DNA from: a virus
Lineage: Duplodnaviria; Heunggongvirae; Uroviricota; Caudoviricetes
DNA: 16,819 nucleotides
Virus record (IMG/VR): IMGVR_UViG_2690316062_000004
Strand: one strand, 5' to 3'
The notes below the pieces were generated by a model, which did not search any database, was not told the origin of the DNA, and worked only from the letters and a program-made list of their open reading frames with translations. This document shows positions 1-15,925 of the stretch, piece after piece (within the stretch, counting starts at the first letter, position 1; each line of letters starts with the position of its first letter). A program made the position numbers and the translations under genes.

Positions 1-885
1 TTACTTTGCAATGAGATCGGGGTCAACTTCGCTAACCCGGCATCGTTTTGACCGGTTGCCCGTCTTTCTTTTTTTCACTTTCGCCAGTTCTTCCGCGGAG
101 TAATGCGACGCGACATCCAGCCGTCGAAGCCCCATTTTGATGTACTCGCTGTTGATCTCAATACCAATGAATTTTCGTCCGCTGGCGATGGCTACGGCAC
201 CGGTAGTAAAGCTACCGGCAAACGGGTCGAGAACGATATCGCCTGGGTTGGAAGAGGCGAGAATAATGCGTTTCAGTAAGGCTTCCGGTTTTTGCGTCGG
301 GTGGTTCTCATATTCATCCATTAAATAACGCACGCGCGGAAAATCCCAGACGTTACCCGGTACTTTTTGATGATTGTATGGCTGTGGAGGATTTTTGCGA
401 TAATCGATCAACGCGCGCTGCGATCCGGTTTTGGCTTCTACCAGAATAGCATCACCGTTGAATGTGTAGTTCTTTGCGTCTTTCACCATCATCAGGATGG
501 GTTCGTACATGGAGCCGTAGTGTTTTTTCGCCTGTACTCCAGAACTGTCATATGACCAGACGATGCGACTTTTGATGGTAAAAAGCTTGCGGCACTGGAG
601 ATCGATAAAGGGCATGTTTTCCGTACTGTTCATAATGTACATGCTGCCCTGCTTTTTCAGAACGCGGTGGCACTCTGCAATCACTTCAAACAGCCAGTCG
701 ATAAACAGATCTTCTTTCCAGGCTTCGATCAGACCATCAAAATTTTTACCGATGTTATACGGTGGGTCGGCAAAGATCAGATCGACGCTTTCAGTAGGTA
801 GCTTTTTAAGTTCGGCAAGGGCATCACCGTGAATAATGGTCTTAGCTTCATTACCAAACCGGGTCGGTTCACATCCTGTTCTCAT
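1..885 (-). CDS. yhdJ: DNA adenine (N6) methyltransferase, YhdJ-like
   Basis: Translation carries the N6-MTase motif IV DPPY (FADPPYNIG) and a C-terminal motif I-like DPFAGSFTTG, and matches my recollection of E. coli YhdJ along its length. Likely ATG at 885 (GGGAG RBS upstream on the minus strand); the ORF track's 891 would be a GTG start. Confidence 0.85.
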   Translation of the reverse strand: MRTGCEPTRFGNEAKTIIHGDALAELKKLPTESVDLIFADPPYNIGKNFDGLIEAWKEDLFIDWLFEVIAECHRVLKKQGSMYIMNSTENMPFIDLQCRKLFTIKSRIVWSYDSSGVQAKKHYGSMYEPILMMVKDAKNYTFNGDAILVEAKTGSQRALIDYRKNPPQPYNHQKVPGNVWDFPRVRYLMDEYENHPTQKPEALLKRIILASSNPGDIVLDPFAGSFTTGAVAIASGRKFIGIEINSEYIKMGLRRLDVASHYSAEELAKVKKRKTGNRSKRCRVSEVDPDLIAK

Positions 886-908
886 GGTCACTCCCTTTGT
901 GACACCTA

Positions 909-946
909 TAAAAAAGGCGCTTCCCCATGCCGAGTAGCGCCTTTTT
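909..946. terminator. Putative bidirectional intrinsic terminator between the fis remnant and yhdJ
   Basis: A-tract (909..915), stem GGCGCT (916..921) / AGCGCC (936..941), then T-tract (942..946). The loop is long, so this is a moderate call. Confidence 0.4.
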
Positions 947-970
947 AATCAAGCATTTAGCTAACCTGAA

Positions 971-985
971 TTAGTTCATGCCGTA
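971..985 (-). other. fis 3' end remnant, candidate attL core of the island
   Basis: Reverse complement reads TAC GGC ATG AAC TAA (Y-G-M-N-stop), the C-terminus of Fis, but the frame breaks immediately upstream (CAG then TGA). It lies exactly between the yhdJ start and the integrase gene. Confidence 0.5.
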
Positions 986-1047
986 CTGTCATATTAGCTG
1001 TTTTCATGCTTTTAGATGATTTTAATATTCATATAATAATCAATGCG

Positions 1048-1137
1048 TTGTATAAATTCATGCCTGTATATTGTTCCAGTGTTTTTCTTTGTTTATGCTA
1101 TTATGCAAGCAATTCTGTATAAACATTTGTATAAACA
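1048..1137. repeat. Four copies of (C/T)TGTATA(A/T)(A/T) upstream of int, possible integrase arm-type sites
   Basis: TTGTATAAATT at 1048..1058, CTGTATATTG at 1064..1073, CTGTATAAACA at 1115..1125, TTGTATAAACA at 1127..1137, in AT-rich DNA just 5' of the int start. Confidence 0.3.
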
Positions 1138-1155
1138 CTTTGGGCTGGGTGGTCT

Positions 1156-2376
1156 ATGGCTGGCGAACTTAACAAACTGAGCGACAGGAAGTTAAAGGGA
1201 TTACATGGTATCCCGGCCAGTAAGATTGAGTTCTATGCTGATGGTGCCGGGCTGAGCGCCAAGGTAACTAAAGCTGGTGGTATTAGCTGGGTGTTTACTT
1301 ACCGACTTGACGGGCAGAAGCTGCATCGTCTGACTCTGGGACGATACCCGGATATGAGCCTCAAAGAAGCCCGTTCATCGCGTGATAAATGCCGCCAGTG
1401 GCTGGCCTCAGGTAAAGATCCAAAGCACCAGTTGGCGTTGACTACTCAGGAAACCCTTAAACCGGTCACTGTTAAGGAAGCTATAGAATACTGGATACGC
1501 GAATATGCAGAAGAGAACCGCGCGAATGTTGAACGGCACAAAGCGGAGCTGCGAAAACACATTTATCCTTATATAGGGAAAATGGCGCTCGCTGACTGTG
1601 AAACACGATACTGGCTTGACTGCTTTGACAGGATGAAAAAGAAAACTCCAGTCGCCGCAGGTTATGTGTTCCAGATGTGCAAACAAGCCCTGAAATTCTG
1701 CCGGGTTCGTCGCTATGCTGTGAGTACCGCGCTTGAAGATTTAACAATTCCAGATGTCGGTAAAAAACAGGCAAAAAAAGACCGGGTATTAAACGATAAA
1801 GAGGCTGGCGATTTATGGGCTGCCATTTCCTCTGGCACTTGCTTCATGCCTTACTACACCAGGCTACTGACAATCTTAATAGTGTTTGGGTGCCGAACGC
1901 AGGAGGCCAGGCTATCAGAGTGGAGTGAATGGGATATGGATGCCTGGGTCTGGACAGTTCCCAAAGAGCACAGCAAGGGTGGCGAGAAGATTGTAAGACC
2001 TGTGCCGGATGCCATGCGCAAATTCATTGAAATACTGCATGATGAAACGAAACGATCCGGCCTTTTGCTTGGGTCGGTTAAAGGCAGTGAAGCGGTAAGT
2101 CAGTGGGGCCGCGGCGTTTATAAAAAGCTAGGGCATTCTGAACCATGGACACTGCACGATCTAAGACGAACTTTAGCAACGCATATGAATAATATGGGTA
2201 TAGCACCACACGTTGTCGAACAGTTGCTGGGGCACTCAATGCCGGGAGTCATGGCGATTTATAACCGTAGTCTGTACTTGCCTGAGAAACTGGATGCGTT
2301 GAATAAATGGTATGACAGACTTGATATTTTATCAGGTGGATTCACTAACATTGTTTTGTTGAATAAGGCTGAATAA
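1156..2376 (+). CDS. int: Tyrosine recombinase / phage integrase, P4 family
   Basis: 406 aa with an N-terminal arm-binding-type region, then catalytic-core signatures (R in GCRTQEA, HDLRRT, LLGH, and the tyrosine in AIYNRS). Confidence 0.9.
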   Translation: MAGELNKLSDRKLKGLHGIPASKIEFYADGAGLSAKVTKAGGISWVFTYRLDGQKLHRLTLGRYPDMSLKEARSSRDKCRQWLASGKDPKHQLALTTQETLKPVTVKEAIEYWIREYAEENRANVERHKAELRKHIYPYIGKMALADCETRYWLDCFDRMKKKTPVAAGYVFQMCKQALKFCRVRRYAVSTALEDLTIPDVGKKQAKKDRVLNDKEAGDLWAAISSGTCFMPYYTRLLTILIVFGCRTQEARLSEWSEWDMDAWVWTVPKEHSKGGEKIVRPVPDAMRKFIEILHDETKRSGLLLGSVKGSEAVSQWGRGVYKKLGHSEPWTLHDLRRTLATHMNNMGIAPHVVEQLLGHSMPGVMAIYNRSLYLPEKLDALNKWYDRLDILSGGFTNIVLLNKAE

Positions 2377-3026
2377 TGACTAGTTTTCTAAAATTGGGTA
2401 TTTTCGAGCGAGAAGCCAAAGCCCCGGAGCTAAATATTAAACAACTTGCACTACTTATGTGTGGGGTAGATCCGACAGTTAAAACTGCTGATATCCCTGA
2501 AGCGAAAGTTGAAGCTTACAATATATACTATCGACAACTGAGTAGATGGTTATCAGCATCTAAATTATTTCGAGGTGGAAACTCAACAGCCTATCCCGCA
2601 GACTATATGTTTGCTCTGGCATATCCTCTTATTGATGAAGATATTACACCACAACCCATAAAGGACAGATGCCTTGCGGCGGTGGCTATAATTGCTAATC
2701 AAAACAAAGGAAAAGAGCATCTTTATGCTATGGGAGGGGATGAGCTTTTACAGGTCGGAATTGCATTGAAAAGCAGCAAACGCGGCTTGCATCGTAAAGA
2801 AGATGAAAAGGAATATAATGATAAATTAATGGGGATGCTGGTCAAGCTTATAGCACATAAGATAGGCCATTCGTTTGGCACCTCTAAAAAACCAAGCATC
2901 TCGGCTATTTTAAACGAACTATATAAATTAGCTGATGAGGAAGGTATATCTAAAACTGGATTATCTAAATCAGCAATATATGAGAAAATTCGAAAGGCAT
3001 TAAATTCGATTTATTATACGGAATGA
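2376..3026 (+). CDS. Hypothetical protein (216 aa), AT-rich, int-coupled cargo gene
   Basis: ATG overlaps the int stop (TAATG at 2374..2378). The gene is visibly AT-rich compared with the neighbouring genes. I recognise no family motif. Confidence 0.6.
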   Translation: MTSFLKLGIFEREAKAPELNIKQLALLMCGVDPTVKTADIPEAKVEAYNIYYRQLSRWLSASKLFRGGNSTAYPADYMFALAYPLIDEDITPQPIKDRCLAAVAIIANQNKGKEHLYAMGGDELLQVGIALKSSKRGLHRKEDEKEYNDKLMGMLVKLIAHKIGHSFGTSKKPSISAILNELYKLADEEGISKTGLSKSAIYEKIRKALNSIYYTE

Positions 3027-3160
3027 ATATTATTTTGCAGTGTTAGTAGGTATTATTTATATTTCATGTGAAAATACTAATTAATTATATTTGTTGGAGC
3101 TTTTGGCGATTCTATGATCGCCAAGGAGATTCAATTGTTATATTTGATGTGTATTACCGT

Positions 3161-3270
3161 TACATTCAACAGCATTCAACAGCATTCAACAGCATTCAAC
3201 AGCATTCAACGACACGTAATGACACGTTATGACACGTAACGGCACCCGACAGCACCTAACAATACCTAGC
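3161..3270. repeat. Eleven 10-bp phased direct repeats (five AGCATTCAAC-type, then degenerate GACACGTAAT-type units)
   Basis: Read directly: tACATTCAAC, AGCATTCAAC x4, GACACGTAAT, GACACGTTAT, GACACGTAAC, GGCACCCGAC, AGCACCTAAC, AATACCTAGC, with strict 10-bp periodicity. Confidence 0.8.
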
Positions 3271-3310
3271 TCCATCCACGGTCCCTACTAGGTCATTACT
3301 TGCTAACTTT

Positions 3311-3373
3311 TTCCATCTTTGTTCATGGTTATTCATCACTGTTCATCAGCGTTCATCATTGTTCATCTTTGTT
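3311..3373. repeat. Six 10-bp phased GTTCATC-type repeats (iteron-like, one mismatch from TGTTCACC)
   Basis: ttccatcttt / gttcatggtt / attcatcact / gttcatcagc / gttcatcatt / gttcatcttt. TGTTCATC differs by one base from the TGTTCACC units clustered after the primase gene. Confidence 0.7.
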
Positions 3374-3626
3374 ATGAACAATCCAAGGTGAATCAAATCG
3401 TTAAAGAACGGTGATCTTCGGCGAGTTATTGAAATTCATGATTTTTTCTCTCGAGACAGCCGTTGAAATTACTGTGGAAACTGTTTTAAACAGGGGAGCG
3501 TTATCTTGATGGAATTTCTATCTTTCAATGGAATTGCATGTTCTTTTAAAGGATTCCAGAATCAATGGAAATTCTGGTCGTTTATCCACTAATCTCTTCG
3601 CATAACATTGAAACAGTGGAGGCAGC

Positions 3627-3911
3627 ATGCAAAATATAACCTTTACCCCGCCAAATCCTGAACAGCGCCGCACCCTTTTAGAAGAGTACGGCTTTAAGTT
3701 TGATCGCCGAATCCGTGAAGATGAATGCAGCGAGATCACCAGTCTTTCCCGTTCCAGCCGCTGGAAGATGGAGCAGCAGGGGCGCTTCCCTCCGCGCTGT
3801 CACTTTGGCCGCAATAGCTGTGCTTGGCTTCTTTCGGATGTGCTCTGGTGGGTTCGTAATCCGCCAGCAGTAGAGAACGTCAATAACCCATACAGCCGTA
3901 AATCTGCTTAA
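3627..3911 (+). CDS. alpA: AlpA-family (prophage CP4-57-type) transcriptional regulator
   Basis: 94 aa; the SLSRSSRWKMEQQGRFPPR segment is the typical AlpA/Vis-like helix-turn-helix signature. GGAGG RBS at 3619..3623 before the ATG at 3627. Confidence 0.8.
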   Translation: MQNITFTPPNPEQRRTLLEEYGFKFDRRIREDECSEITSLSRSSRWKMEQQGRFPPRCHFGRNSCAWLLSDVLWWVRNPPAVENVNNPYSRKSA

Positions 3912-3931
3912 TTAACCACAGGTAATCTGAG

Positions 3932-4624
3932 ATGAAAAAGATTAATGCCCTCCACGGGCAGGGATTCGCTCACCCTGTAGCCAGCCAGCACGATATTTCA
4001 GCGAACCGTAAACAGGTTATTTCCGGTGACTGGTCGCCCATTAATCGCGGTGAATTTACGCTTGCCGATCTGGGGTTGCGCCACAACGGTAACGGGCTGG
4101 TGTGGCTGCGTTCCGGCGTGTCCGTGCATGAGGCAGACCATGATGTAGGGATAAGCGGCAAGGACAAGACCAAAGGAAGGGTTAATGGTCTTCCTTTTGA
4201 ATTTGTCGGCCAGTGGCAGGAATACCCGACTAAACGCAGCTTTGCCGTTTCAGTATCTACGGAACTACGCCGCCAGTATTACCCGGACGATGCCACTTTT
4301 GGTAAGGCGATGCGTGAGGCGGGTTATATCCCCGTGCGCACCCGTAAATTGACCGGGAAGCTGGCAAGTTACTGGCTGTATAGAGTAACGGGTAACGATA
4401 AGGGGGTATGCACAGCAGAACCCACGCCCTGCAAGGCTTCCGCGCCAGTTGTCCAGACCATATCTAAGCCTCATCCGTGGTTTAAACGTGTGGCACTCGA
4501 TGGTAAATGGCAGTACGTCTACGCAGATCACATCCGCTTTCTGACGAAAAAGCGTCATCGCGTCGATGGTGTTCGGGTTCAGGGGTATACCGCTGGCGGG
4601 CTGAAAGTGGAGGCTATTGTATGA
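3932..4624 (+). CDS. Hypothetical protein (230 aa), backbone gene of unknown function
   Basis: Long ORF with backbone-like GC content directly after alpA. No motif recognised. Confidence 0.55.
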
Positions 4625-4734
4625 CAGGCAAAACAAAGGCGGCCATGCCGGGCCGCCAGTGCAATACCGCTTTACAGAAACATCGCCAGATTACCAGGCT
4701 TGCCGCTGGTGGTCAAACCTTGAGCCGACGAAAT

Positions 4735-4772
4735 CCGTACGCACAAATTAACCGCGTACGTTTAACGTACGG
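4735..4772. promoter_or_regulatory. CGTACG-based palindrome cluster, possible operator
   Basis: Perfect 8+1+8 inverted repeat CGTACGTT-t-AACGTACG at 4755..4771, plus a further CCGTACG half-site at 4735..4741. Confidence 0.3.
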
Positions 4773-4875
4773 AGATCGAGACAAAGGCGAACAGTATTCG
4801 GGTTCATGGCAAAACAACGTTAAACGTGGTTTAGAGGCTCCGACGAAAAACGTAGAGAGCTGCGAAGATAACCAA

Positions 4876-4945
4876 CCCTCTTTAAGAGGGGAGCCTCTGC
4901 ACAACTCATTAATAGTTGCGCAAAACAGACCCTTTTTAAGAGGGG
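4876..4945. repeat. Two copies of a 16-bp palindromic unit, CCCTCTTTAAGAGGGG and CCCTTTTTAAGAGGGG
   Basis: 15 of 16 positions identical at 4876..4891 and 4930..4945; each unit is a (near-)perfect inverted repeat. They lie just 3' of the minus-strand small gene. Confidence 0.5.
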
Positions 4946-4976
4946 CAGTCCACAGCATTACGGGGAGTAACCCTGT

Positions 4977-5150
4977 TCAGCCTTTTGGCTCGATGCCGCG
5001 CTTATCAAGTTCACGGCGCAAAAGGCGTTTTATCCATCCCGACTTATTATCGTCACCGTCTTCTTTCATCGCTAAAGCGAGCCGCTCTGACAGTTCTTTA
5101 TCGAGTCTGAGCTGCACAACATGGCGCTCTTTATTTTCGCTTGTTGACAT
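4977..5150 (-). CDS. Small ribbon-helix-helix-like DNA-binding protein (57 aa), candidate repressor
   Basis: Internal ATG at 5150 preceded on the minus strand by GGAG. The peptide [57 protein letters not shown] has the strand-helix-helix pattern of Arc/CopG-type proteins. The 38-aa proline-rich extension in the ORF track (start 5264) looks non-coding. Confidence 0.45.
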
Positions 5151-5192
5151 TGTCAACTCCTGTGGTCTAGTCTGTAGTGGAGTTGACAATGT
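5147..5192. promoter_or_regulatory. Perfect 14-bp inverted repeat with 18-bp spacer, covering the RBS and start codon of the RHH gene
   Basis: ACATTGTCAACTCC (5147..5160) and GGAGTTGACAATGT (5179..5192) are exact reverse complements. TTGACA hexamers occur at 5144..5149 and 5183..5188. Confidence 0.6.
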
Positions 5193-5289
5193 ACTACATT
5201 GCATGACTTTTAGTAAAGCAAAGCCCGGCAGTGGTGGAACACTAACCGGGCCTCTAACCACCACCGTTAGCGAAAGTAACGAGGCAGCT

Positions 5290-5481
5290 ATGAAAGATCA
5301 TATCACACACCCGCAAGGGCGGAAGTCCTACATCTGGCGTTTTCTTGCACTGAGCGCCATCGGTCGCAACGTCATTCACATCACAGCTAACACTGAGCGC
5401 GAAGCCCGTGAGCAATCACCGGCTGGCTGCGTGATGGTATGCGCTGGCCGTCTACCAGTTCAGGAGGTTCGCTATGCGTGA
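5290..5481 (+). CDS. Hypothetical small protein (63 aa), first gene of the replication operon
   Basis: ATG at 5290 with GAGG five nt upstream; stop overlaps the next ATG (ATGCGTGA). It is the only plausible part of the 324-aa track ORF. Confidence 0.35.
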
Positions 5482-5668
5482 GCCAATCTGTCTGGAGCAG
5501 GCCGAATATAAATCAGCGCTGGCTTCATCACTTTACGAAACCATCCTGGAAAAAGCCTCTGCTGAATGTTCAGAAACGCTGCTGAATCTGATTTCTATTG
5601 CGTGTGATTTTAATCAGGAAATTCACCGGGCATTAATCGCCGAGCTGCACATGGGAGAGACAAAGTGA
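5474..5668 (+). CDS. Hypothetical small protein (64 aa)
   Basis: Strong AGGAGG RBS at 5463..5468 before the ATG at 5474. Confidence 0.5.
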
Positions 5669-5880
5669 GACAGGTTCCTTTTGAAGTCCTGATGCACGCT
5701 GAAAATGCCCTTTCAGAAAGTGAGTGCGCAATGTCTGTGCTGAGCATGTGGATTGACAGCATTCCCGACGGTGAAGAACACCGTGAGGAAGCGTGCCGTG
5801 TCGGAGCAATTATGTCTCTGCTGCACAAATCTATCGGCGAGCTGGTGAAGGCGCGGGAGGCTTACAGTGCGAAATCCTGA
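5665..5880 (+). CDS. Hypothetical small protein (71 aa)
   Basis: GTG start overlapping the upstream stop (GTGA), with GGGAGAG RBS upstream. Confidence 0.45.
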   Translation: MRQVPFEVLMHAENALSESECAMSVLSMWIDSIPDGEEHREEACRVGAIMSLLHKSIGELVKAREAYSAKS

Positions 5881-6058
5881 AATCAACGATAGCTGGAAGG
5901 ATAAGCGCGGCGAACTGGTCACGGTGAAAGATAACGCATTTAACCGGGTAACGTTTGTGCGTGATGGTTACGATTTTCCGTGCATCTTTCCGCTGGAAAG
6001 GTTCGTTAAAGAGTTCACTTTCGTTAGCTGGGGGCTGAAAGATGAAAAACGCGCCTAA
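5867..6058 (+). CDS. Hypothetical small protein (63 aa)
   Basis: GTG start with GGGAGG RBS at 5855..5860; the 3' end overlaps the primase start. Confidence 0.45.
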   Translation: MRNPEINDSWKDKRGELVTVKDNAFNRVTFVRDGYDFPCIFPLERFVKEFTFVSWGLKDEKRA

Positions 6059-7811
6059 TGTGAAAACCCTCCCGCGCGACAAAATGGAGGAGGCCATCAT
6101 CTTTGCTGGAACGGGAGCATGGAAAGCCGCTCAGGATTACCAGAAAGGCAAGGGCGAGCATGGAGACGATGTTCCACCTGTGGTTCTGGATCACACCCAA
6201 CTGGCGGAATTGCCACACCTGCGCATTGTTGATAAAGGCCGTCGGTTTGCTCGTGTCTGTCAGGCCGGACTTATCGAGCAAAACCAAATCAGCATGATTG
6301 CAAATAAGCTGTGTGAGGCTGGCGTTACCAATGCTGAGTTTATCAACGAAAAAGGTGAGAAAGAGGACTGGACGCCATTAATGAAGCGTTTGGAAGACGA
6401 GCCCCTAATGGTGACTACGAGGGGTAGTGCTACGCCAGCGCTTAACCAGATGGGAGCCAGCCAGCGCGGGGAGGTTCTGCTTGCTCATTACGATGGCAAT
6501 CTGGCGATCCATGCTGATTCTGACACGGTTCATCATTACAACGGCGTGGTGTGGGTTCCGCTTTCGGATAAAGAGCTACAGCGGGAAATGGCGCAAATTT
6601 TTATTGATGCCGAAGTCGCCTATTCGCAGAACGCGATTAAATCCGCTGTCGATACAATGAAGCTGGGTCTGCCAGTGATGGGTAATACAGCCCGAAATCT
6701 TATTGGTTTCAGCAACGGGGTTTTTGATACCCGGTTAGGCCAATTTCGACCGCATGATAAAAAGGACTGGCTTATCGTTGCGAGCGAATTGCCATTCAGC
6801 GAACCAGCAGAAGGAGAGACTCTGGCAACCCATGCGCCGAACTTCTGGAAATGGCTCCGCCGCTCAGTGGCGGATAATGACCGAAAAGCAGACCGCGTAC
6901 TGTCTGCGCTGTTTATGGTGCTGGCGAACCGGTACGACTGGCAGCTGTTTCTTGAGGTAACGGGGCCGGGCGGAAGTGGTAAAAGTGTTATGGCTGAGAT
7001 CTGCACGATGCTGGCGGGCAAGGCCAACACCGTATCAGCGAGCATGGCGGCGCTGGAGAACCCAAGGGAAAGGGCGCTGGTAGTGGGCTATTCGCTGATT
7101 ATCATGCCGGATATGACCCGGTACGCTGGCGACGGCGCAGGGATTAAAGCTATCACTGGCGGGGATAAGGTAGCCATTGACCCTAAACACAAAGCGCCAT
7201 ATTCAACCCGTATTCCAGCGGTGGTGCTTGCCGTCAATAACAATGCCATGTCGTTCAGCGACAGAAGCGGGGGGGTTTCCAGACGGCGGGTGATTTTCAA
7301 CTTCTCCGAAGTGGTACCGGAAAACGAACGCGATCCTATGCTGGCCGAGAAGATTGAAGGTGAGCTGGCTGTAATCATTCGCCACCTGCTCACTCGCTTT
7401 TCCAGGCAGGACGAAGCCAAACAGCTTTTGCATGAGCAGCAGAAATCAGAAGAAGCGCTGGCCATCAAACGTGAAGGGGATTCACTGGTGGACTTTTGCG
7501 GCTACCTGATGGCTTCGGTGGTTTGTGATGGAATGCTGATTGGCAATGCCGAGATCGTGCCATTCAGCCCGCGCCGTTATCTGTATCACGCTTATCTGGC
7601 TTATATGCGGGCTAATGGTCTGAGCAAGCCGGTATCGCTGATGAGGTTCGGTACGGATATGCCAGGCGCAATGGCTGAATATGGCAAGGAGTACCAGAAG
7701 CGCAAAACAAAACATGGCATAAGGTCAAACGTCACGCTTCACGACGACTCAGAAGACTGGATGCCTATGTGGAATGATACATCTCATAACAGTGGAGAAA
7801 ATCAAAAGTAA
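6042..7811 (+). CDS. P4-family primase/replicative helicase (alpha-like, D5/SF3 NTPase)
   Basis: 589 aa; Walker A GPGGSGKS with downstream Walker B-like acidic stretch (LIIMPDMT), the usual layout of phage/plasmid primase P4-family C-terminal domains. Followed immediately by an iteron cluster. Confidence 0.85.
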   Translation: MKNAPNVKTLPRDKMEEAIIFAGTGAWKAAQDYQKGKGEHGDDVPPVVLDHTQLAELPHLRIVDKGRRFARVCQAGLIEQNQISMIANKLCEAGVTNAEFINEKGEKEDWTPLMKRLEDEPLMVTTRGSATPALNQMGASQRGEVLLAHYDGNLAIHADSDTVHHYNGVVWVPLSDKELQREMAQIFIDAEVAYSQNAIKSAVDTMKLGLPVMGNTARNLIGFSNGVFDTRLGQFRPHDKKDWLIVASELPFSEPAEGETLATHAPNFWKWLRRSVADNDRKADRVLSALFMVLANRYDWQLFLEVTGPGGSGKSVMAEICTMLAGKANTVSASMAALENPRERALVVGYSLIIMPDMTRYAGDGAGIKAITGGDKVAIDPKHKAPYSTRIPAVVLAVNNNAMSFSDRSGGVSRRRVIFNFSEVVPENERDPMLAEKIEGELAVIIRHLLTRFSRQDEAKQLLHEQQKSEEALAIKREGDSLVDFCGYLMASVVCDGMLIGNAEIVPFSPRRYLYHAYLAYMRANGLSKPVSLMRFGTDMPGAMAEYGKEYQKRKTKHGIRSNVTLHDDSEDWMPMWNDTSHNSGENQK

Positions 7812-7819
7812 TGGGAAAA

Positions 7820-8049
7820 GTGTTCACCACTATTCACCGTGGATAAAATCGTCTATTTAACAGATAGTTAAGGGGTGAACACTTTTTATTGAAGTGTTCA
7901 CCAAGTATTCACCTGTTCACCTTTAAAGGGTTTTTCTTTTAAAAGGTGAAGGGTTAGGGTGAATACTAGTGAATACTTAAAATTATAGTCTTCACCCTGT
8001 AACCCAATGAATTTAAATAGGAAAAATGCAAAGGTGAACAGGTGAACAC
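7820..8049. repeat. Iteron cluster (TGTTCACC / TATTCACC / CTTCACC and complements), putative replication origin (ori/crr)
   Basis: At least eleven copies in both orientations, e.g. GTGTTCACC 7820..7828, TATTCACC 7831..7838, GGTGAACAC 7874..7882, GTGTTCACC 7895..7903, TGTTCACC 7914..7921, GGTGAATAC 7959..7967, GGTGAACAGGTGAACAC 8033..8049, with an AT-rich tract at 7921..7945. Confidence 0.65.
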
Positions 8050-8082
8050 TTAAACGTATATTTCTATTTTTTGAGGCTACAG

Positions 8083-8427
8083 ATGGAAATTTTAGGTAAT
8101 CATAAAGACAAGTTTCAGGGTATCCAATTTCTGCATAGTGCAATCGAAGAACTGAATGAGAAAACTGGAGTAACGCTGACAGACTATCTGGCTTTAAGGG
8201 CTTTTGTTCTGGCTGAGCGAAGGGAAAATCAGGATTACATTGACGCTATGGATGCACCATATGCTGACTTACCAGATGAACTGCGTTCTTACATTGAACT
8301 TCTCAATGATGTTGCTGCACAACTGTCCAATCCAGCACGTTCAAATGGAGATTTGAGGTCAATCATTTATGATGCGAGAATATCCAGCGGAAACGCTGTG
8401 TCTCACTGGCTTAATGTCGAAAGATAA
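8083..8427 (+). CDS. Hypothetical acidic protein (114 aa), first gene of the AT-rich cargo cassette
   Basis: ATG at 8083 with GAGG at 8074..8077 (the track's 8071 would be a TTG start). AT-rich; no motif recognised. Confidence 0.55.
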   Translation: MEILGNHKDKFQGIQFLHSAIEELNEKTGVTLTDYLALRAFVLAERRENQDYIDAMDAPYADLPDELRSYIELLNDVAAQLSNPARSNGDLRSIIYDARISSGNAVSHWLNVER

Positions 8428-8450
8428 TAAAGTCTACAGAGGAAGAGTTA

Positions 8451-9296
8451 ATGCGAACTAACGATAATTTACAGATGATCAATAAACATCTGGAAGGAGA
8501 GTTTGAACGGCAATTGTTTGACTCTGCGATCTACAATCTTTTAGATGTAAATAATCAACTTCGCTTCAGTAATTATGCCTATGCACTTAGAGAACTATTT
8601 TTACACGTCATAAAACGCATGGCACCTGATAAAAATGTTCAGTCATGTGATTGGTTCCCTGGCTTGAATGAAAGAGAGCAGGTCTCAAGAAAAGACTCTT
8701 ACAAATATATAATCCAGGGTGGGTTAAGTGATGAATATGTCAGGGAAGAGCTTGATGTAAATGTTGCTGGGGTTTTTCCGAGGTTACGTGACGCATTCAA
8801 TTCATTAAATAAATTTACTCACATCAGCGAAAATATTTTCCCAATTAATGATGATGCTGGCCTCCAAATGGTCGGAGAGGTTGAAGGCTGTATCAGCGCT
8901 CTTTTCACCAAGCTTGATGAGTGTCATAAGGAGATAATTAATAAGCTATATGAAGCCGTTAGTGAGGCCGCGATTCATAGTTCGATAACTGAAACTGTAA
9001 CATCAATTGATATTTTATCGACACACAGTTCGGTTGATGAAGTGTATGTTGATGATGTTAAAATAGTAGAAATAAATGATACTGAAATAGTTTTCTCTGT
9101 TATTGGTTCTGTAGGTGTCGGGTTGCAATGGGGATCTAATTCCGATTTGCGAAATGATATTGGTGCTGTAGGTAGTGAGACATTCCCATTTACCTGCGAG
9201 GTGAGAAGTCCAGTGTATGCCCCTGAAAGTTTAGAGTGTGATGAAGGGGCATTCCATGCAGATACTTCAAGCTGGTGGGAAGGGTATTACGACTAA
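8451..9296 (+). CDS. Hypothetical protein (281 aa), second gene of the AT-rich cargo cassette
   Basis: ATG 24 nt after the upstream stop; AT-rich; followed by an intrinsic terminator. Contains an R-x4-H stretch (RELFLH), which is only weak evidence for any fold. Confidence 0.6.
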   Translation: MRTNDNLQMINKHLEGEFERQLFDSAIYNLLDVNNQLRFSNYAYALRELFLHVIKRMAPDKNVQSCDWFPGLNEREQVSRKDSYKYIIQGGLSDEYVREELDVNVAGVFPRLRDAFNSLNKFTHISENIFPINDDAGLQMVGEVEGCISALFTKLDECHKEIINKLYEAVSEAAIHSSITETVTSIDILSTHSSVDEVYVDDVKIVEINDTEIVFSVIGSVGVGLQWGSNSDLRNDIGAVGSETFPFTCEVRSPVYAPESLECDEGAFHADTSSWWEGYYD

Positions 9297-9333
9297 CAAG
9301 TGTAAATTATTTGTCCTCGCGCTTATTAGTGCT

Positions 9334-9360
9334 TAGCCCGATTAAATTCGGGCTTTTCTT
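9334..9360 (+). terminator. Intrinsic terminator after the cargo cassette
   Basis: Stem AGCCCGA (9334..9340), loop TTAAAT, stem TCGGGCT (9347..9353), then TTTCTTT. Confidence 0.6.
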
Positions 9361-9528
9361 TATTATTTTCATGTATATGTTGAGAAGTGGCACTCAGACG
9401 TGAGCCGCCACTGGCCGTTAAGTCAAGCTGTAGCGAGTACAGCCTGCGAGAGGCAGAAAAAGATTTAACGGCCTCCCCCCTAAGCGCTGGTTTCACGTCT
9501 TAACATTAATTGTTACGGAAACCACTCC

Positions 9529-10695
9529 ATGAAGAAACTACTCGAATTACGCCAGCAGAAAGCCGCACTCAAAACACAGATGCGTTCCATGCTGGACAAA
9601 GCCGACACCGAAAAGCGCAGCCTGAACGAAGAAGAGGGCAAAAAGTTCGATGAACTCCGCGCCCAGGCTGATGCGCTTGAAGTTGAAATCACCCGTCTAG
9701 AAGCCGTCGCCGACGATCAGCGCAATCTGCCTGGTACTTCCGTTGAAGGTGAGCCAGTAAGCAACGACGAGCTGCGCCACTACATCATGACAGGTGATAC
9801 CCGTTCTCTCTCCACGCTGGTGCAGGCTGATGGCGGCTATACCGTTATCCCTGAGCTGGACAAAGAGATTATGCGCCAGTTGCAGGATGATAGCGTGATG
9901 CGCTCCATCGCAACGGTGAAGACCACCAAAACCAACGAATACCAGAAGCTGGTATCTGTGGGCGGCACTACCGTTAATCGTGGTACCGAAGGTGAGGCAC
10001 GTACCGAAACCAGTACGCCGAAGATGGAGCGCGTTGATATCAAACTCAACCCGATCTACGCCTACCCGAAAACCACTCAGGAGATTCTCGACTTCTCCGA
10101 GGTGGATATTTTGGGCTGGCTGTCTTCTGAAATTGCCGACACCTTCACCGCGACCGAAGAAAGCGACTTTGTGAACGGCGACGGTGATAAAAAATCCAAA
10201 GGCTTCCTGTCTTACCCTCGCGCGGCCACTGCCGACAAAACCCGTCCGTTCGGTACGCTGGAGAAGATGGAAGCGGCTGACGTTTCCTCTGATGGCCTGA
10301 TCGACCTGCTGTATAAGCTGAAAGCCAAATACCGCAAAAACGCCGTATGGGTGATGAACTCCAACACCGCAGCCAAACTGCAAAAGCTGAAAAACGGCAA
10401 CGGGGATTACATCTGGCGCGATCGTCTGGTTGCCGGTTCTCCCGATACGCTGCTGGGCCGTCCTGTTCAGTATCTGGAAACCATGCCGGATGCGGAGGCA
10501 GGTAAAGCATTCCTCGCGGTAGGCGACTTCAAGCGCGGCTATTTCATCGTGGATCACACCACTGGCGTGCGTACCCGCCCTGACAACATCACCGAGCCGG
10601 GTTTCTACAAGGTGCATACCGATAAATACCTGGGCGGTGGTGTGGTGGACTCCAACGCCATCAAGGTGCTTGAGCTTTCAGGCTCCGGTTCCTGA
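9529..10695 (+). CDS. Major capsid protein, HK97 fold, with N-terminal coiled-coil scaffold-like domain
   Basis: 388 aa. The N-terminal ~100 aa are highly charged and helical (delta-domain-like), followed by a capsid-type body. Its position directly before a prohead protease and portal supports the call. Confidence 0.85.
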   Translation: MKKLLELRQQKAALKTQMRSMLDKADTEKRSLNEEEGKKFDELRAQADALEVEITRLEAVADDQRNLPGTSVEGEPVSNDELRHYIMTGDTRSLSTLVQADGGYTVIPELDKEIMRQLQDDSVMRSIATVKTTKTNEYQKLVSVGGTTVNRGTEGEARTETSTPKMERVDIKLNPIYAYPKTTQEILDFSEVDILGWLSSEIADTFTATEESDFVNGDGDKKSKGFLSYPRAATADKTRPFGTLEKMEAADVSSDGLIDLLYKLKAKYRKNAVWVMNSNTAAKLQKLKNGNGDYIWRDRLVAGSPDTLLGRPVQYLETMPDAEAGKAFLAVGDFKRGYFIVDHTTGVRTRPDNITEPGFYKVHTDKYLGGGVVDSNAIKVLELSGSGS

Positions 10696-10705
10696 TTTGA
10701 CGTTT

Positions 10706-10726
10706 AAGGGGCTGCGGCCCCTTTTT
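10706..10726 (+). terminator. Intrinsic terminator/attenuator after the capsid gene
   Basis: GGGGC-TGCG-GCCCC hairpin (10708..10721) followed by TTTTT (10722..10726). Confidence 0.55.
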
Positions 10727-10746
10727 GCCCTCTGTGGAGTCCAGTA

Positions 10747-11307
10747 ATGAAAACAATCGATTTTGAAATCCGTACCTCCGAAGTGAGCGCCAGCAACAAA
10801 AAGCTGGTGGGCTATGCCGTGCGCTGGAACAGTCTCTCTGAAATTATCTGGGACGAGTTCCGCGAGCAGTTTGCGCCGGGAGCGTTTAAAGACAGCCTGG
10901 CATCCGGTAGCGATGTGCGTGCGCTGTACGAGCATAACTATACCCAGCTGCTGGGCCGCACTAAATCCGGCACGCTGGTGCTGTCAGAAGATGATACCGG
11001 GCTGCGCTTCGAGCTGACCCCGCCGAATACCCAGCTTGGCAACGATGTGCTGGAGCTGGTGGAGCGCGGGGATATCTCCGGCATGAGCTTTGGTTTCCGG
11101 GCGCTGAAAGAGGCGTGGGATATTGCTCAGTCTCCATACCTGCGCACTGTTACCGCTGCCGAACTGCGGGAGATTACCGTTACCTCTATGCCTGCTTATC
11201 CTGAGTCTGGCGTGGAAATCGCGCACCGTTCGCTTTTCTCCCAATATCCTGAACTGCGCCGGGCTGGTGATAACCGCCGCCGCTGGGCTGAATTAGCGGG
11301 GCTCTGA
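10747..11307 (+). CDS. Prohead serine protease, HK97 family
   Basis: 186 aa, with N-terminal GYAVRW and the SFGF segment typical of HK97-type prohead proteases. Confidence 0.8.
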   Translation: MKTIDFEIRTSEVSASNKKLVGYAVRWNSLSEIIWDEFREQFAPGAFKDSLASGSDVRALYEHNYTQLLGRTKSGTLVLSEDDTGLRFELTPPNTQLGNDVLELVERGDISGMSFGFRALKEAWDIAQSPYLRTVTAAELREITVTSMPAYPESGVEIAHRSLFSQYPELRRAGDNRRRWAELAGL

Positions 11308-11308
11308 T

Positions 11309-12544
11309 ATGTGGAATATCTGGCCGTTTGGCCGTAAGTCTGAACCCTCTGAGCAGCGCAGCATGACCATTGATGAGTTTCTGGCGATGGCAGGGATTCC
11401 AAATACCGGATCAGGCGAATATGTGTCTGCGGGTACTGCGGAATCTCTGCCGGCGGTCATGAACGCCGTGTCAGTTATCAGTGAGGCGGTGGCAACAATG
11501 CCCTGCTACCTCTACCGCGTGCGCAACGATAACGGGCGTGAGGCGCGAGAATGGCTGAGCAATCACCCGGTGGATTTTCTCCTGAACGAGCAGCCGAACG
11601 ACTGCCAGACGCCTTATCAGTTTAAACGCACGATGATGCGCCATTGTCTGCTGAACGGTAACGCCTATGCGGTGATCCAGTGGGGCCGCGACGGCCAGCC
11701 GCAATCCCTGCACCCGTATGCGCCGGGGGCGGTTGTTCCTGAGCGTATCGGCCAGCATAAGTACAAATACACCGTTACAGAGCCGTTTACCGGGGCTGTG
11801 CGCACCTATCTACAGGAAGAGATTCTGCACCTGCGTTACTCCACCGATGATGGCTTTCTGGGGCGTTCGCCTATTACTACGTGCCGTGAGGCGCTGGGGT
11901 TAGGTCTGGCCCAACAGCGCCACGGTGCCAGCATTATGAAAGATGGCATGATGGCGGCGGGCGTCGTCACTACTGCTGAATGGCTCGACAGCGTGAAGGG
12001 TAAGCAGGCTCTGGACGCACTGGAGCGCTACAAAGGTGCCAGAAATGCCGGGAAAACGCCGATCCTTGAAGGTGGCATGGACTACAAGCAGCTTGGCATG
12101 AGCAATCAGGATGCCGAATGGCTGGCGTCGCGCCGGTTCTCCATTGAAGACATTGCCCGCATGTTCAATGTGTCGCCCATCTTCCTGCAGGAATACAGCA
12201 ACAGCACCTACAGCAATTTCAGCGAAGCGAGCCGCGCCTTTCTCACCATGACCATGCGCCCGTGGCTGGCGAACTTCGAGCAACAAATCAAATCTGCTTT
12301 GCTGGTGGCCTCTCCGGTTCCAGGAACCCGCTATCAGGTGGAGTTTGACTCTGCTGACCTTCTCCGTGCCACACCTACCGAGCGTTACGCCACTTATGAG
12401 CGAGGCATTAAGAACGGGATCATGAACCCGAACGAAGCCCGTGAGCGCGAGGGGATGCCGCCGCGTAAAGGTGGTGACGAATTCAGCCAGGCATGGAAGC
12501 AGGAAGTGAAGATCAGCAAAGACGGCAAGGAAGGTGACGCATGA
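11309..12544 (+). CDS. Portal protein, HK97 family
   Basis: 411 aa; size, composition and position (between protease and adaptor) fit HK97-type portals; translationally coupled to its neighbours. Confidence 0.85.
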   Translation: MWNIWPFGRKSEPSEQRSMTIDEFLAMAGIPNTGSGEYVSAGTAESLPAVMNAVSVISEAVATMPCYLYRVRNDNGREAREWLSNHPVDFLLNEQPNDCQTPYQFKRTMMRHCLLNGNAYAVIQWGRDGQPQSLHPYAPGAVVPERIGQHKYKYTVTEPFTGAVRTYLQEEILHLRYSTDDGFLGRSPITTCREALGLGLAQQRHGASIMKDGMMAAGVVTTAEWLDSVKGKQALDALERYKGARNAGKTPILEGGMDYKQLGMSNQDAEWLASRRFSIEDIARMFNVSPIFLQEYSNSTYSNFSEASRAFLTMTMRPWLANFEQQIKSALLVASPVPGTRYQVEFDSADLLRATPTERYATYERGIKNGIMNPNEAREREGMPPRKGGDEFSQAWKQEVKISKDGKEGDA

Positions 12545-12879
12545 GAGCCGGGGGGCTGAGAAGCCGCGACACTATTCGGGTATTCACTACCCACAGGGAG
12601 CCGTCCGGTCAGGTTGTTCAGGTCTGGGAAGACGGGGAAACCATATGGGCTGAGGTTAAGGGGATCAGTGGCCGAGAGTTAATGGCGTCAGGTGCCGAGG
12701 TTGCCGAAGCGACGATCCGCGTTTGGGTGCGTTTCCGCCGTGATATTACCGCAGCCAACCGTCTGAAAGTGCTTACTGGCCCGTTTGCTGGCAGCACTCT
12801 CAATATTATCGGGCCTCCTATTCCTGATTCGGAAGGTACTCGGCTGGAAATTCTCTGCAAGACAGGAACGGAAAAATGA
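12541..12879 (+). CDS. Head closure / head-tail adaptor protein
   Basis: 112 aa; ATGA overlap with the portal stop; pattern resembles small head-tail joining proteins. Confidence 0.65.
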   Translation: MRAGGLRSRDTIRVFTTHREPSGQVVQVWEDGETIWAEVKGISGRELMASGAEVAEATIRVWVRFRRDITAANRLKVLTGPFAGSTLNIIGPPIPDSEGTRLEILCKTGTEK

Positions 12880-13169
12880 CAGCAGAAATCACCCTGGATG
12901 AAGCAAAGCTGCATTGCCGTATTGATGATGATTACGAAGATACGTTGATACAGGCGTACATCGATGCGGCGCTGGAGGTTTGCCAGAAGCATATCGGCAA
13001 GCGGTTTGATAACGGGCTGGAGTTTACGCCAGCTATCAAGATTGGCTGTCTGATGTACGTATCTCAGCTGTACGAGTACCGCACGATGATTGGTGATACC
13101 GACGCCAAAGAGATACCGATGGCTGTCTCTGCGTTGTGGTCTGTCTATCGTGATGTGGGGGTGTACTGA
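12876..13169 (+). CDS. gp6-like head-tail connector protein
   Basis: 97 aa; N-terminus ITLDEAKLHCRIDDDYEDTLIQAYIDAA matches the gp6-like connector signature. Confidence 0.7.
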   Translation: MTAEITLDEAKLHCRIDDDYEDTLIQAYIDAALEVCQKHIGKRFDNGLEFTPAIKIGCLMYVSQLYEYRTMIGDTDAKEIPMAVSALWSVYRDVGVY

Positions 13170-13612
13170 TGCCGTGGCAACCACTACGCCGGTGCAATGA
13201 GCCGGGATGTAATAAACGGGTGAAGTCTGGCAAGTGTGACGAGCATAAGCGGGATGCCCGCCGACAAAGCGACAGCCGAAGAGGTACGCGAACAGAGCGT
13301 GGTTACTCCAACCGCTGGGGCGAATACCGTCGTCATTTTCTAAAAGCTAATCCGCTGTGTGTCCATTGTCTCAAGGCTGGCGTCTATGCATCGGCAACTA
13401 TCGTCGATCACATCATCCCTATCGAGGGTGAAGCTGATGTGCTGTTCTGGCCCGCCAGTAATCACCAGTCGTTATGCGCTGCCTGTCATGGACGGAAGAC
13501 AACCACAACAGACCCGGTGACGAAGCAGCAGCGTAAAGCCGGTAAGTTCCGCGAGCAGGAAGAAGCAGCACGTCATCGCACCGACTGGATCTATGAGGCA
13601 AACAATGACTGA
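13169..13612 (+). CDS. HNH endonuclease (packaging-associated)
   Basis: 147 aa with Cys clusters (CNEPGC, CVHC, CAAC) and a histidine in the DHIIPI segment; TGATG overlap with the upstream gene; sits immediately before the terminase genes. Confidence 0.8.
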   Translation: MPWQPLRRCNEPGCNKRVKSGKCDEHKRDARRQSDSRRGTRTERGYSNRWGEYRRHFLKANPLCVHCLKAGVYASATIVDHIIPIEGEADVLFWPASNHQSLCAACHGRKTTTTDPVTKQQRKAGKFREQEEAARHRTDWIYEANND

Positions 13613-13887
13613 GCAGGAACAGCAGCGGCTGATTAGTGGGCTGATAAAGCAGCGTGAGTCATGGCAACCAGCCAGACAGAGAGCGCATAAGAAGCCCGTA
13701 GCAAAGCGCATGAGCCAGCGTGACCGGGAGCTTATGGAATGCTTTCGCAACCGCTGACAGGCCGAATGGACGGGGTGGGGGAGGTTTTCAGGACAAACCC
13801 CTCTCAGCGAGGAACCACCCGCCCCCTCAAATTTTTACGCACGGTGATTTTTTTGAAAATAAAACGCGACGGAAACGAGAAATTTTT

Positions 13888-14244
13888 ATGGCAAGACCAC
13901 CCAAACCGCCAGCTTACCTTGATGAGTTAGCTGCGCAGCAGTGGAAAGCGAAGGCGAAGCAACTGGCGGAGCGCGGGGATTTGACTCCCGCCGACTGGAA
14001 CAACCTTGAGCTTTTTTGCGTCAACTATTCGATGTACCGCAAAGCCGTGGAAGACCTTGCCAGCCGTGGGTTCAGCATTGTTAACAGCCAGGGCGGTGAG
14101 AGCCGAAATCCGGCGCTGAGCGCAAAGGCCGATGCTGAAAAAATCATGATTAAAATGTCGTCGCTGCTGGGCTTTGATCCGGTAAGCCGCCGCCGGAACC
14201 CGGTGGAAACGGAGGAGGAAGACGAGCTTGACCGTCTGGAATGA
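13888..14244 (+). CDS. Terminase small subunit (P27-like)
   Basis: ATG at 13888 gives the 118-aa protein MARPPKPPAYLDELAAQQW..., typical of small terminases; the GTG at 13720 in the ORF track would add a glycine-rich, non-protein-like leader. Confidence 0.7.
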   Translation: MARPPKPPAYLDELAAQQWKAKAKQLAERGDLTPADWNNLELFCVNYSMYRKAVEDLASRGFSIVNSQGGESRNPALSAKADAEKIMIKMSSLLGFDPVSRRRNPVETEEEDELDRLE

Positions 14245-15889
14245 GTACGCAAACGCGATAAAAACGGGCGAAATTCCGGCCTGTAAGCGCGTAAAACAGG
14301 CCGTGGAAAGGTACTTTTCAGACCTGAATGACCCCCGTTATGTGTTCGATACGGCGACCGTAGAGCGGTTTATTGCGTTCTCGCGGCTCTGTCCTCACGT
14401 CAAAGGCCCGTTGCGCGGGCAGTCTATCGAGCTGGAGCCGTGGCAGCAGTTCGCCTTTGCTAACCTGCTGGGCTTTAAAGTCAGGGAGTCAGGCCGCCGG
14501 AAGTATAGCAGCGCCTTTATTGAGGTGCCGCGCAAGAATGCCAAATCCACCGTGGCCGCCATGCTGGCTAACTGGTTTCTGGTGATGGAGAAGGGCCAGC
14601 AGGATATCTACACGGCGGCGGTAAGCCGGGATCAGGCCCGAATCGTGTTCGACGATGCCCGCCAGATGTGCCTGCTGTCAAAACCGCTGAAAAAGCGCGT
14701 CAGTATTCAGGCACACAAGGTCATTTTCCCGAAGAGCAACAGCCTGTTAAAGCCGCTGGCGGCAAAAGCGGCCACCATTGAAGGGACTAACCCCAGCCTG
14801 GCGATTGTCGATGAGTACCACCTTCACCCGGATAACGGCGTTTATTCCGCGCTTGAGCTGGGTATGGGCGCCCGTCCTGAGGCAATTTTGTTCGCCATCA
14901 CTACCGCCGGGAGTAACGTAGTCTCGGCCTGTAAGCAGCATTATGACTACTGCTGCCAGATTCTGGCAGGGGAAGAGAGCAACGATTCTCTGTTTGTCCT
15001 GATATACGAGCTGGACGACGAAATTGAGGTTGAGCAGCCGGAAATGTGGATTAAGGCCAACCCTAACCTGCATGTGTCTGTTGACGCAGCGAAGCTGGAA
15101 TCCACCATCCAGAAAGCGCGGGGGGTACCGTCGCAATGGGTGGAAATGCTCACCAAACGTTTCAATATCTGGTGTCAGGGCTCCACGCCGTGGATGGGGG
15201 CTGGCGCGTGGGATGCCTGTGCACTCGACTATAACGAAGAAGAGCTGGTCGGAATGGAGTGTTATGCCGGGTTTGACCTGTCCTCAACCAGCGATATCAC
15301 CAGCGTGAGTTACGCTTTCCCGTTTGACAGGGAGATCCGGCTTCTGACCCGCCACTATCTACCGGAAGCGCAACTGCTTAACGTCGCCAACAAAAACCGC
15401 GCCATCTATCGCCAGTGGGTAAAAACGGGCTGGATACGCACCACACCCGGCGACTGTATCGACTATGACCGCATTCGTGACGATATCCTGCGCGATGCTG
15501 AAACCTTCAATATTCGGCTGGTGGGCTTTGATACGTGGAACGCTACGCATCTGCGCACCCAGCTACAGGGTGCGGGCCTTGATGTTGAGCCATTCCCGCA
15601 AACCTATCTCAGGTTCAGTCCGGTAGCGAAATCCTTTGAAGTGTTTGTTAACCGCAGGGTAGTGCGCCATCGCGGTGATCCGGTTCTGGCCTGGGCGATT
15701 GGTAACGTGGTGATGGAGTCCGACGCCAATGCCAACATCAAGCCCAACAAAAAGAAATCCTCCAACAAGATAGATCCGGCTGTGTCTGCGTTAATGGCGT
15801 TTGGCACCTTCCAGGCTGAGCACGAGGATTTTGCATTTGATATGAGTGACAGTCACAAACAACGGCTAGCTGATTTCAATGGGCTTTGA
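14228..15889 (+). CDS. Terminase large subunit
   Basis: 553 aa with the overall layout of large terminases. No in-frame ATG near the 5' end, so a TTG start at 14228 overlapping the small subunit is assumed; the start is uncertain. Confidence 0.85.
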   Translation: MTVWNEYANAIKTGEIPACKRVKQAVERYFSDLNDPRYVFDTATVERFIAFSRLCPHVKGPLRGQSIELEPWQQFAFANLLGFKVRESGRRKYSSAFIEVPRKNAKSTVAAMLANWFLVMEKGQQDIYTAAVSRDQARIVFDDARQMCLLSKPLKKRVSIQAHKVIFPKSNSLLKPLAAKAATIEGTNPSLAIVDEYHLHPDNGVYSALELGMGARPEAILFAITTAGSNVVSACKQHYDYCCQILAGEESNDSLFVLIYELDDEIEVEQPEMWIKANPNLHVSVDAAKLESTIQKARGVPSQWVEMLTKRFNIWCQGSTPWMGAGAWDACALDYNEEELVGMECYAGFDLSSTSDITSVSYAFPFDREIRLLTRHYLPEAQLLNVANKNRAIYRQWVKTGWIRTTPGDCIDYDRIRDDILRDAETFNIRLVGFDTWNATHLRTQLQGAGLDVEPFPQTYLRFSPVAKSFEVFVNRRVVRHRGDPVLAWAIGNVVMESDANANIKPNKKKSSNKIDPAVSALMAFGTFQAEHEDFAFDMSDSHKQRLADFNGL

Positions 15890-15925
15890 TAGTGCTTGAA
15901 CTTTTCAAATTGTCACTGTAATTCT

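Follow-up and report, generated by a model that had tools for sequence, protein, structure and literature searches.

The fis end between yhdJ and the integrase gene

The window, by which we mean the whole 16,819-nucleotide stretch of DNA analysed (IMG/VR record IMGVR_UViG_2690316062_000004), begins with yhdJ and runs through an intergenic segment into an integrase gene. The features of this left end are listed below.

1 to 885, minus strand: yhdJ, adenine-specific DNA methyltransferase, chromosomal flank (RefSeq annotation of the colinear OW1E2 locus; Pfam N6_N4_Mtase, E=2.5e-64)
910 to 946, minus strand: native fis rho-independent terminator, a GGCGC...GCGCC hairpin with a U-run (identical to K-12; hairpin in both the MFE and centroid folds)
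947 to 970, minus strand: native fis 3'UTR spacer (identical to K-12), which holds an IHF-consensus match at 947-959
971 to 985, minus strand: probable int-proximal copy of the att core, identity block TACGGCATGAACTAA (K-12 alignment; equal to the published consensus)
986 to 1155, plus strand: P' arm and int upstream region, the first island bases (K-12 divergence at 986; conserved blocks in 13 diverged elements)
1156 to 2376, plus strand: tyrosine integrase of 406 aa with a P4-type domain layout (Pfam Arm-DNA-bind_3, Phage_int_M, Phage_integrase)

The yhdJ gene of the window is 99.8% identical to that of E. coli and starts at 885, with the 891 of the ORF list being an upstream GTG. On the minus strand, TACGGCATGAACTAA at 971-985 reads Y-G-M-N-stop, the last four codons of fis and its stop codon, while the plus strand of 961-1000 reads ctaacctgaaTTAGTTCATGCCGTActgtcatattagctg. 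Translation of 940-1060 on the minus strand gave '...KQLI*QYGMN*', in which the codon two places before the Tyr is a stop and the Fis frame is not continued. The original prediction had placed a minus-strand fis tail between the yhdJ start and int, with its frame broken directly upstream, and each of these points was confirmed, as the segment lies between 885 and 1156 and the 15-mer is continuous with the native fis 3'UTR. The predicted span of 940-1000 was wider than the feature itself, which occupies 971-985; positions 940-970 are native fis 3'UTR and 986-1000 are the first 15 bases of the island. Allowing up to two mismatches, the 15-mer occurs once in the window, against a chance expectation of 0.04.

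Using the island-free fis-yhdJ locus of K-12, an alignment that the original prediction had itself proposed, we found the breakpoint at 985/986. The two sequences are colinear over window positions 820-985 without an indel, and the sole difference lies at the far yhdJ end. Likewise, the order in window 1-985 is that of the empty K-12 locus, namely yhdJ, fis terminator, 3'UTR and the last 12 nt of fis. Divergence begins exactly at 985/986, where K-12 goes on with the remainder of fis and the window with foreign DNA, so that the native fis terminator at 910-946 has been cut off from its gene and now stands between the island and yhdJ. Across complete E. coli genomes, the fis site was uninterrupted in 5,309 of 5,426 and not in the other 117 (2.2%).

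The insert has the gene set of a capsid-forming PICI

Beyond the integrase gene, the following features were assigned.

3627 to 3911, plus strand: AlpA-family regulator/excisionase, a PICI signature (Pfam Phage_AlpA, E=5.3e-10)
6042 to 7811, plus strand: D5-type primase/helicase, replication module (Pfam D5_N, DUF5906, Pox_D5)
9529 to 15889, plus strand: head and packaging genes, comprising major capsid, S78 prohead protease, portal, head completion, connector, HNH, TerS and TerL (Pfam)
986 to 16819, plus strand: body of the capsid-forming phage-inducible chromosomal island (cf-PICI) inside the window, which in relatives continues for ~750 bp to a second core beside fis

The integrase matched Arm-DNA-bind_3 (E=5.5e-19) and Phage_integrase (E=5.2e-18), with Phage_int_M falling below its cutoff, and it keeps the catalytic motifs GCRTQE, HDLRRT, LLGH and IYNRS. 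Proteins 100% identical to it are present in Klebsiella pneumoniae ATCC 13883 and Enterobacter hormaechei. All eight head and packaging functions of cf-PICIs are represented by Pfam matches. Tail genes were found neither among the 20 ORFs compared with Pfam, all but a few short ones, nor in the RefSeq annotation of relatives, and no lysis or lambda-type repressor gene was found in the ~16.6 kb that the whole island measures by comparison with relatives. By its gene set, the insert is therefore a capsid-forming PICI, and dependence on a helper is predicted.

ARAGORN returned no tRNA or tmRNA gene in the window and Rfam returned no match, which excludes a cryptic tRNA-like target. This upholds the earlier claim that there is no tRNA at the site, with the target being the coding end of fis.

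Two cargo positions were also observed in the island. Between the primase and capsid modules (8071-9296) there is a 118-aa ORF without a family match, followed by a 281-aa protein that belongs to the Argonaute-associated nuclease family (Pfam pP_pnuc_1/pP_pnuc_2; PADLOC Aga_Nuclease, E=1.2e-84). An Argonaute gene is absent from the island, and this nuclease may be a stand-alone defence gene in a known PICI accessory slot. The other cargo is a pair of genes beside the fis-side att arm, encoding a 297-aa protein (15926-16819, minus strand) and a 100-aa protein (17927-18229 of contig L002). For the 297-aa protein, no sequence match was found in Pfam, PADLOC, NCBIfam or PDB, and a single-sequence AlphaFold model had a mean pLDDT of 35 and was unusable; our impression is of a candidate caspase-like His/Cys pair. 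In other fis islands this terminal slot holds a DUF3892 gene.

The far junction in relatives

The last base of the window falls at the start of the gene for the 297-aa protein, still within the island, and the right junction lies further on. The best matches to the island among complete E. coli genomes covered 83% of it at 95.5% identity and 84% at 94.6%, and none of the complete E. coli genomes searched contained the whole island; we therefore read the far junction in relatives. Window 13800-16819 is matched at 99.9% identity by E. coli ABW_S38, which beyond the point at which the window ends continues with the 100-aa gene, ...gTGTATAAACAttTGTATAAAg..., a hairpin, ...cattaGTTCATGCCGTA and then an intact fis. 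The 297-aa terminal protein was found unchanged in eight contigs, and the junction is the same in all eight, its core standing at a window-equivalent position of ~17,566. In total, nine relatives with the last gene of the window have the core ~750 bp past the window end, beside an intact fis.

The fis flanks of the eight contigs fall into three nucleotide variants, which suggests that they come from different hosts. An identical integrase and terminal cargo protein (L030-L037, L005/L006) was observed beside three fis variants, and in Klebsiella and Enterobacter, which indicates that near-identical islands sit at fis in several genera.

Four further elements, in OW1E2, EA2, 873.10 and a Scandinavium MAG, have paired cores 9.6 to 16.4 kb apart together with an intact fis. 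Furthermore, in 12 of 12 occupied loci Fis has 98 aa and is identical to K-12 Fis. Both the second core at the right end and the intact fis at the far junction, as originally proposed, were thus present in every relative examined, ~750 bp further on where the last gene is shared, and for the window's own extension we infer them from these relatives. A junction near +747 past 16819 would be expected to contain TGTATAAACA-nn-TGTATAAA, a hairpin-plus-U terminator, GTTCATGCCGTA and an intact 98-codon fis. Together with the K-12 colinearity, the paired cores of the relatives support the view that 971-985 is a duplicated att core left by insertion into the 3' end of fis.

Extent and conservation of the core

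Within the 15-mer lies the sub-core GTTCATGCCGTA (window 974-985, plus strand), which 20 of 22 loci with integrase homologues share at a distance of 176-209 bp ahead of int. These represent about a dozen genera, including Enterobacter, Klebsiella, Pectobacterium, Proteus, Yersinia and Xenorhabdus, and the 12-mer was also present in 38 IMG/VR loci. Near-identical islands in several genera can be understood because the coding end that contains this 12-bp core hardly varies.

In OW1E2 the core copies are TACGGCATGAAC-TAA-TTC on the yhdJ side and TACGGCATGAAC-TGA-TAC on the fis side, and they also differ upstream of TAC, with G on the island and A in fis. Since they diverge outside 13 bp, strand exchange must fall in TACGGCATGAACT (973-985). 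The identity between core copies is longer elsewhere, being 16 bp in ABW_S38-type elements and ~80 bp in EA2, where it spans the whole terminator.

An excised form was looked at in two IMG/VR metagenome contigs (L050 and L042), whose integrases are 97-100% identical to that of the window. In both, TerS/TerL, ~0.9 kb, the P arm, the core, the P' arm and int are contiguous, and this contiguous attP provides evidence, at the level of sequence, of an excised form in close relatives. One of the two (L050, IMGVR_UViG_3300022664_000095) has a unit length of 15,518 bp and ends between HNH and TerS. Such a contig would fit a satellite genome that was cut at cos and packaged, and its ends place a likely cos region at window ~13,612-13,830.

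The 3' end of fis after insertion

The original prediction had raised a possible effect on fis termination, and this concern is largely answered because the island brings a stop codon, a 3'UTR and a hairpin-plus-U putative terminator. The fis-proximal arm of each island contains a stop codon (TAA or TGA), a ~24-nt spacer and a GC-rich hairpin with a U-run. This hairpin closely copies the native fis terminator in elements of the OW1E2, EA2 and Scandinavium types. In ABW_S38-type elements, the type expected for the window's element, it is unrelated to the native terminator and has the same spacing. A consensus terminator scan called neither the native nor the surrogate fis terminators, and we therefore assessed them by folding. 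The 97-nt surrogate segments gave terminator-like hairpins with z-scores of -2.2 to -3.7 relative to shuffles; internal mismatches and long loops explain why the simple scan missed them. Transcription of fis should still end before the island, and the Fis protein should be unchanged. On this evidence fis would be unharmed, as the island supplies only four codons and yet a complete replacement 3'UTR and putative terminator.

Doubled motifs flank the core

We found several further elements of a candidate attachment-site architecture between the core and int.

1038 to 1050, plus strand: putative IHF site, a consensus match AATCAATGCGTTG, the AATCA part of which is conserved across elements
1064 to 1080, plus strand: conserved CTGTATATTGTTCCAGTG, with the CTG-N10-CAG form of an SOS (LexA) box (0.09 expected by chance)
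1116 to 1137, plus strand: doubled motif TGTATAAACA-tt-TGTATAAACA with a 12-bp period, candidate arm-type integrase site (a copy lies in the far arm of relatives)

Matches to the IHF consensus (WATCAANNNNTTR) thus flank the core, at 947-959 in the native fis 3'UTR and at 1038-1050 in the P' arm. Across 13 diverged P' arms the segment TGTTCCAGTG changes only once, by a substitution in L010, and CTGTATATTGTTCCAGTG, lying upstream of int, could be an operator or promoter element for that gene.

The doubled motif of the window is TGTATAAACAttTGTATAAACA and stands just upstream of int. In about 60 loci its centre is +147 bp from the centre of the core (range 144-148; +153 where the motif is tripled), and a co-oriented copy lies at about -86.5 (-85.5 to -87.5) on every far arm that could be seen, which were those of five elements with both junctions, the L030-L037 junctions, L042, L050, L093 and L108. 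Examples of far-arm copies are at 37139-37161 in L001 and 18561-18580 in L002, with others in L050 and L042. At least five sequence types of the motif exist (TGTATAAACA, GTGGGGTA, GTGTAGTC, GTGCAGTCAGT and GTGTATCAC), and where both arms are visible the two carry the same type, as seen in seven elements (types A, C and H) and, by way of its arm-domain class, in L093.

We compared the N-terminal ~62 residues of 46 distinct integrases with the rest of each protein, and found that identity in the N-terminal part tracks motif type and not overall relatedness. Among pairs whose bodies are 90-100% identical, the arms were 99.1% identical where the motif type was the same and 49.3% where it differed (12 pairs), the Proteus loci L014 and L024 being an example of a different-type pair. 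For pairs with bodies 60-70% identical, the corresponding values were 75.9% and 51.1%. The doubled motif therefore fits a candidate site for the Arm-DNA-bind_3 domain. Physical linkage could explain part of this covariation, since no more than 20-40 bp separate the P' motif from the int start.

A separate observation concerns the IMG/VR record IMGVR_UViG_2588253788_000005, where positions 1200-1530 of the contig (L095) hold a G-type far arm, GTGGGGTAccccaTGGGGTA, and a terminator upstream of the core of a T-type element. Read in this way, the arms imply that a single fis site carries a tandem of two fis satellites with unlike arm types.

Proposed mechanism

In the mechanism that we propose, the tyrosine integrase of the island would recombine the attP core with the same sequence at the chromosomal end of fis (attB), with exchange taking place inside TACGGCATGAACT, over at most 13 bp. 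Integration would duplicate the core, leaving the window copy with the original fis 3'UTR, terminator and yhdJ, while the other copy, ~750 bp past the window, would close the fis frame at the far end. The far arm would then give fis a replacement stop codon, spacer and hairpin-plus-U terminator at the native spacing. The doubled motifs at -86.5/+147 would be bound by the N-terminal arm domain of Int, and the IHF-like sites between core and arms may allow a lambda-like intasome, with a presumed role for IHF. Both the function of the terminator and the activity of this particular copy are what we would infer from this scheme.

Alternative readings of the junction

We consider 971-985 to be the int-proximal attachment junction of a capsid-forming PICI of the 'fis PICI' class, with a probability of roughly 0.93. 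A chance 15-bp likeness to the fis terminus, in unrelated intergenic DNA with fis intact elsewhere and no att site, would be in keeping with the retention of just four codons and a stop and with a frame closed directly upstream. However, 85 bp of the native fis 3' region (3'UTR and terminator) join the 15-mer to yhdJ, just as in K-12, and the low chance expectation, the same core near int in 20 of the 22 homologues and its recurrence on the fis side in all relatives make a coincidence extremely improbable. A fis pseudogene scar was rejected as a reading of 971-985. Equally little weight falls on an ordinary small prophage, or a prophage-satellite fusion, that uses fis without being a satellite. 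A complete HK97-type head and terminase set is encoded, and Kpn16fis was first labelled a 'Sipho. prophage' (PMC5001619), but no tail, lysis or lambda-type repressor gene was found in the ~16.6 kb, AlpA and a D5 primase are present, and the gene set equals the definition of a cf-PICI.

It is also conceivable, and distinctly unlikely, that the att scar is genuine while the element is a fixed, decayed remnant, with its far att lacking or inactive and its core non-functional in excision. The right end does lie outside the window, the island is a mosaic without a full-length match among complete E. coli genomes, and some relatives carry IS1 insertions or large deletions (L030, L032). Against this, no module in the window has a truncated ORF and the Pfam matches of these ORFs are strong, the catalytic motifs of Int are retained, the P' arm is identical or nearly so to those of elements seen as excised or packaged contigs, and the far core is kept in all contigs that share the terminal gene. 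We thus retain the attachment junction of a fis PICI as the reading of this locus.

Relation to known satellites and attachment systems

Islands in fis have been described by Tommasini, Mageeney & Williams (2023, NAR Genom Bioinform), who reported 2,642, later 3,565, of them, identified them as PICIs and not prophages, and noted yhdJ across the island from fis (PMC10111431). Their consensus for the fis PICI identity block is TACGGCATGAACTAA, and the block can reach into the terminator (PMC10111431). The excision of a Klebsiella member is cited there from Schoeniger et al. (PMC10111431), whose Table 1 gives a length of 15,995 bp for Kpn16fis and records reads across its circular junction (Schoeniger et al. 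2016, PMC5001619). The window's element shares with fis PICIs, including Kpn16fis/Kpn47.16.fis of K. pneumoniae BAA-2146, the target, the block, Int and AlpA, the absence of tails and the yhdJ neighbour; nothing essential differs, the window copy being a mosaic without a full-length match in a complete genome. The insertion into the end of fis is therefore confirmed as real, correctly read and already known, and since the class, its block and its excision are all published, the prediction was a correct rediscovery. Its emphasis on a notable choice of site holds in that the target is not a tRNA, but fis was already a published PICI site with the same consensus block.

In gene set and absence of tails the element also resembles the cf-PICIs EcCIEDL933 (Alqurainy et al., 10.1101/2022.09.08.507074) and EcCIGN02175 (He et al., 10.1101/2025.02.11.637232), and, as with those, almost identical copies are found in several genera and among packaged virome DNA. 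The cf-PICIs use six E. coli attB sites (10.1101/2022.09.08.507074; 10.1101/2025.02.11.637232), and fis is not named as an attB in the main text of either of these papers.

Phage 21/e14 at icd and P4 at leuX likewise insert at the 3' end of a conserved gene and keep it functional with a replacement 3' end, and P4-type integrases have the same layout of Arm-DNA-bind_3 and catalytic domains as that of the window. Unlike these elements, the island replaces only four codons and mainly restores the stop codon, 3'UTR and putative terminator, with no tRNA involved; the window's element accordingly falls outside the tRNA/tmRNA-targeting P4-type group, in which attB lies inside a tRNA or tmRNA gene.

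For the arms, the closest likeness is to the helper-embedded PICIs (HE-PICIs; 11capE and relatives), whose doubled motif (tgTGTATTGCantgTGTATTGCa; TGTATTGC) lies at 81 and 132 bp and is absent from fis PICI attPs, and whose integrase clades are related to those of fis PICIs (PMC10111431). In each group, either arm of the attP carries a doubled motif, co-oriented with that of the other arm and at a set distance from the centre. HE-PICIs, however, target prophage late genes with distances of 81/132 bp, whereas the fis elements have 86.5/147 bp and other motif sequences, of at least five types. In a lambda-type intasome, arm repeats flank the core with IHF-consensus sites between, as they do in the family of the window, where binding and bending are putative. 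A pair of candidate arm sites just upstream of int is also shared with KplE1, for which Panis et al. 2010 (PMC2951348) describe autoregulation by IntS through arm sites overlapping the int promoter; for the window's integrase autoregulation may be proposed only by analogy.

In the literature searched we did not find the doubled-motif architecture of the fis attP described; it lies outside the originally predicted span and is the only potentially new element. Nor did anything specific come up there on arm-type sites of fis satellites or on regulation of PICI int by LexA. The locus itself is an ordinary junction of a satellite class that is abundant and already published, and this explains a P4-type integrase beside yhdJ without a nearby tRNA. 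We regard it as an even bet that arm types and the first ~62 residues of Int swap together as a cassette, with core and catalytic body unchanged, and that the CTG-N10-CAG element could place int under LexA control. If true, these would be natural arm-specificity cassettes, which might allow satellites that are co-resident or in tandem at a single attB to excise independently of one another, and arm motifs that switch type within a fixed geometry would be of interest for engineering and classifying tyrosine integrases and helpful for resolving tandem satellites at one site.
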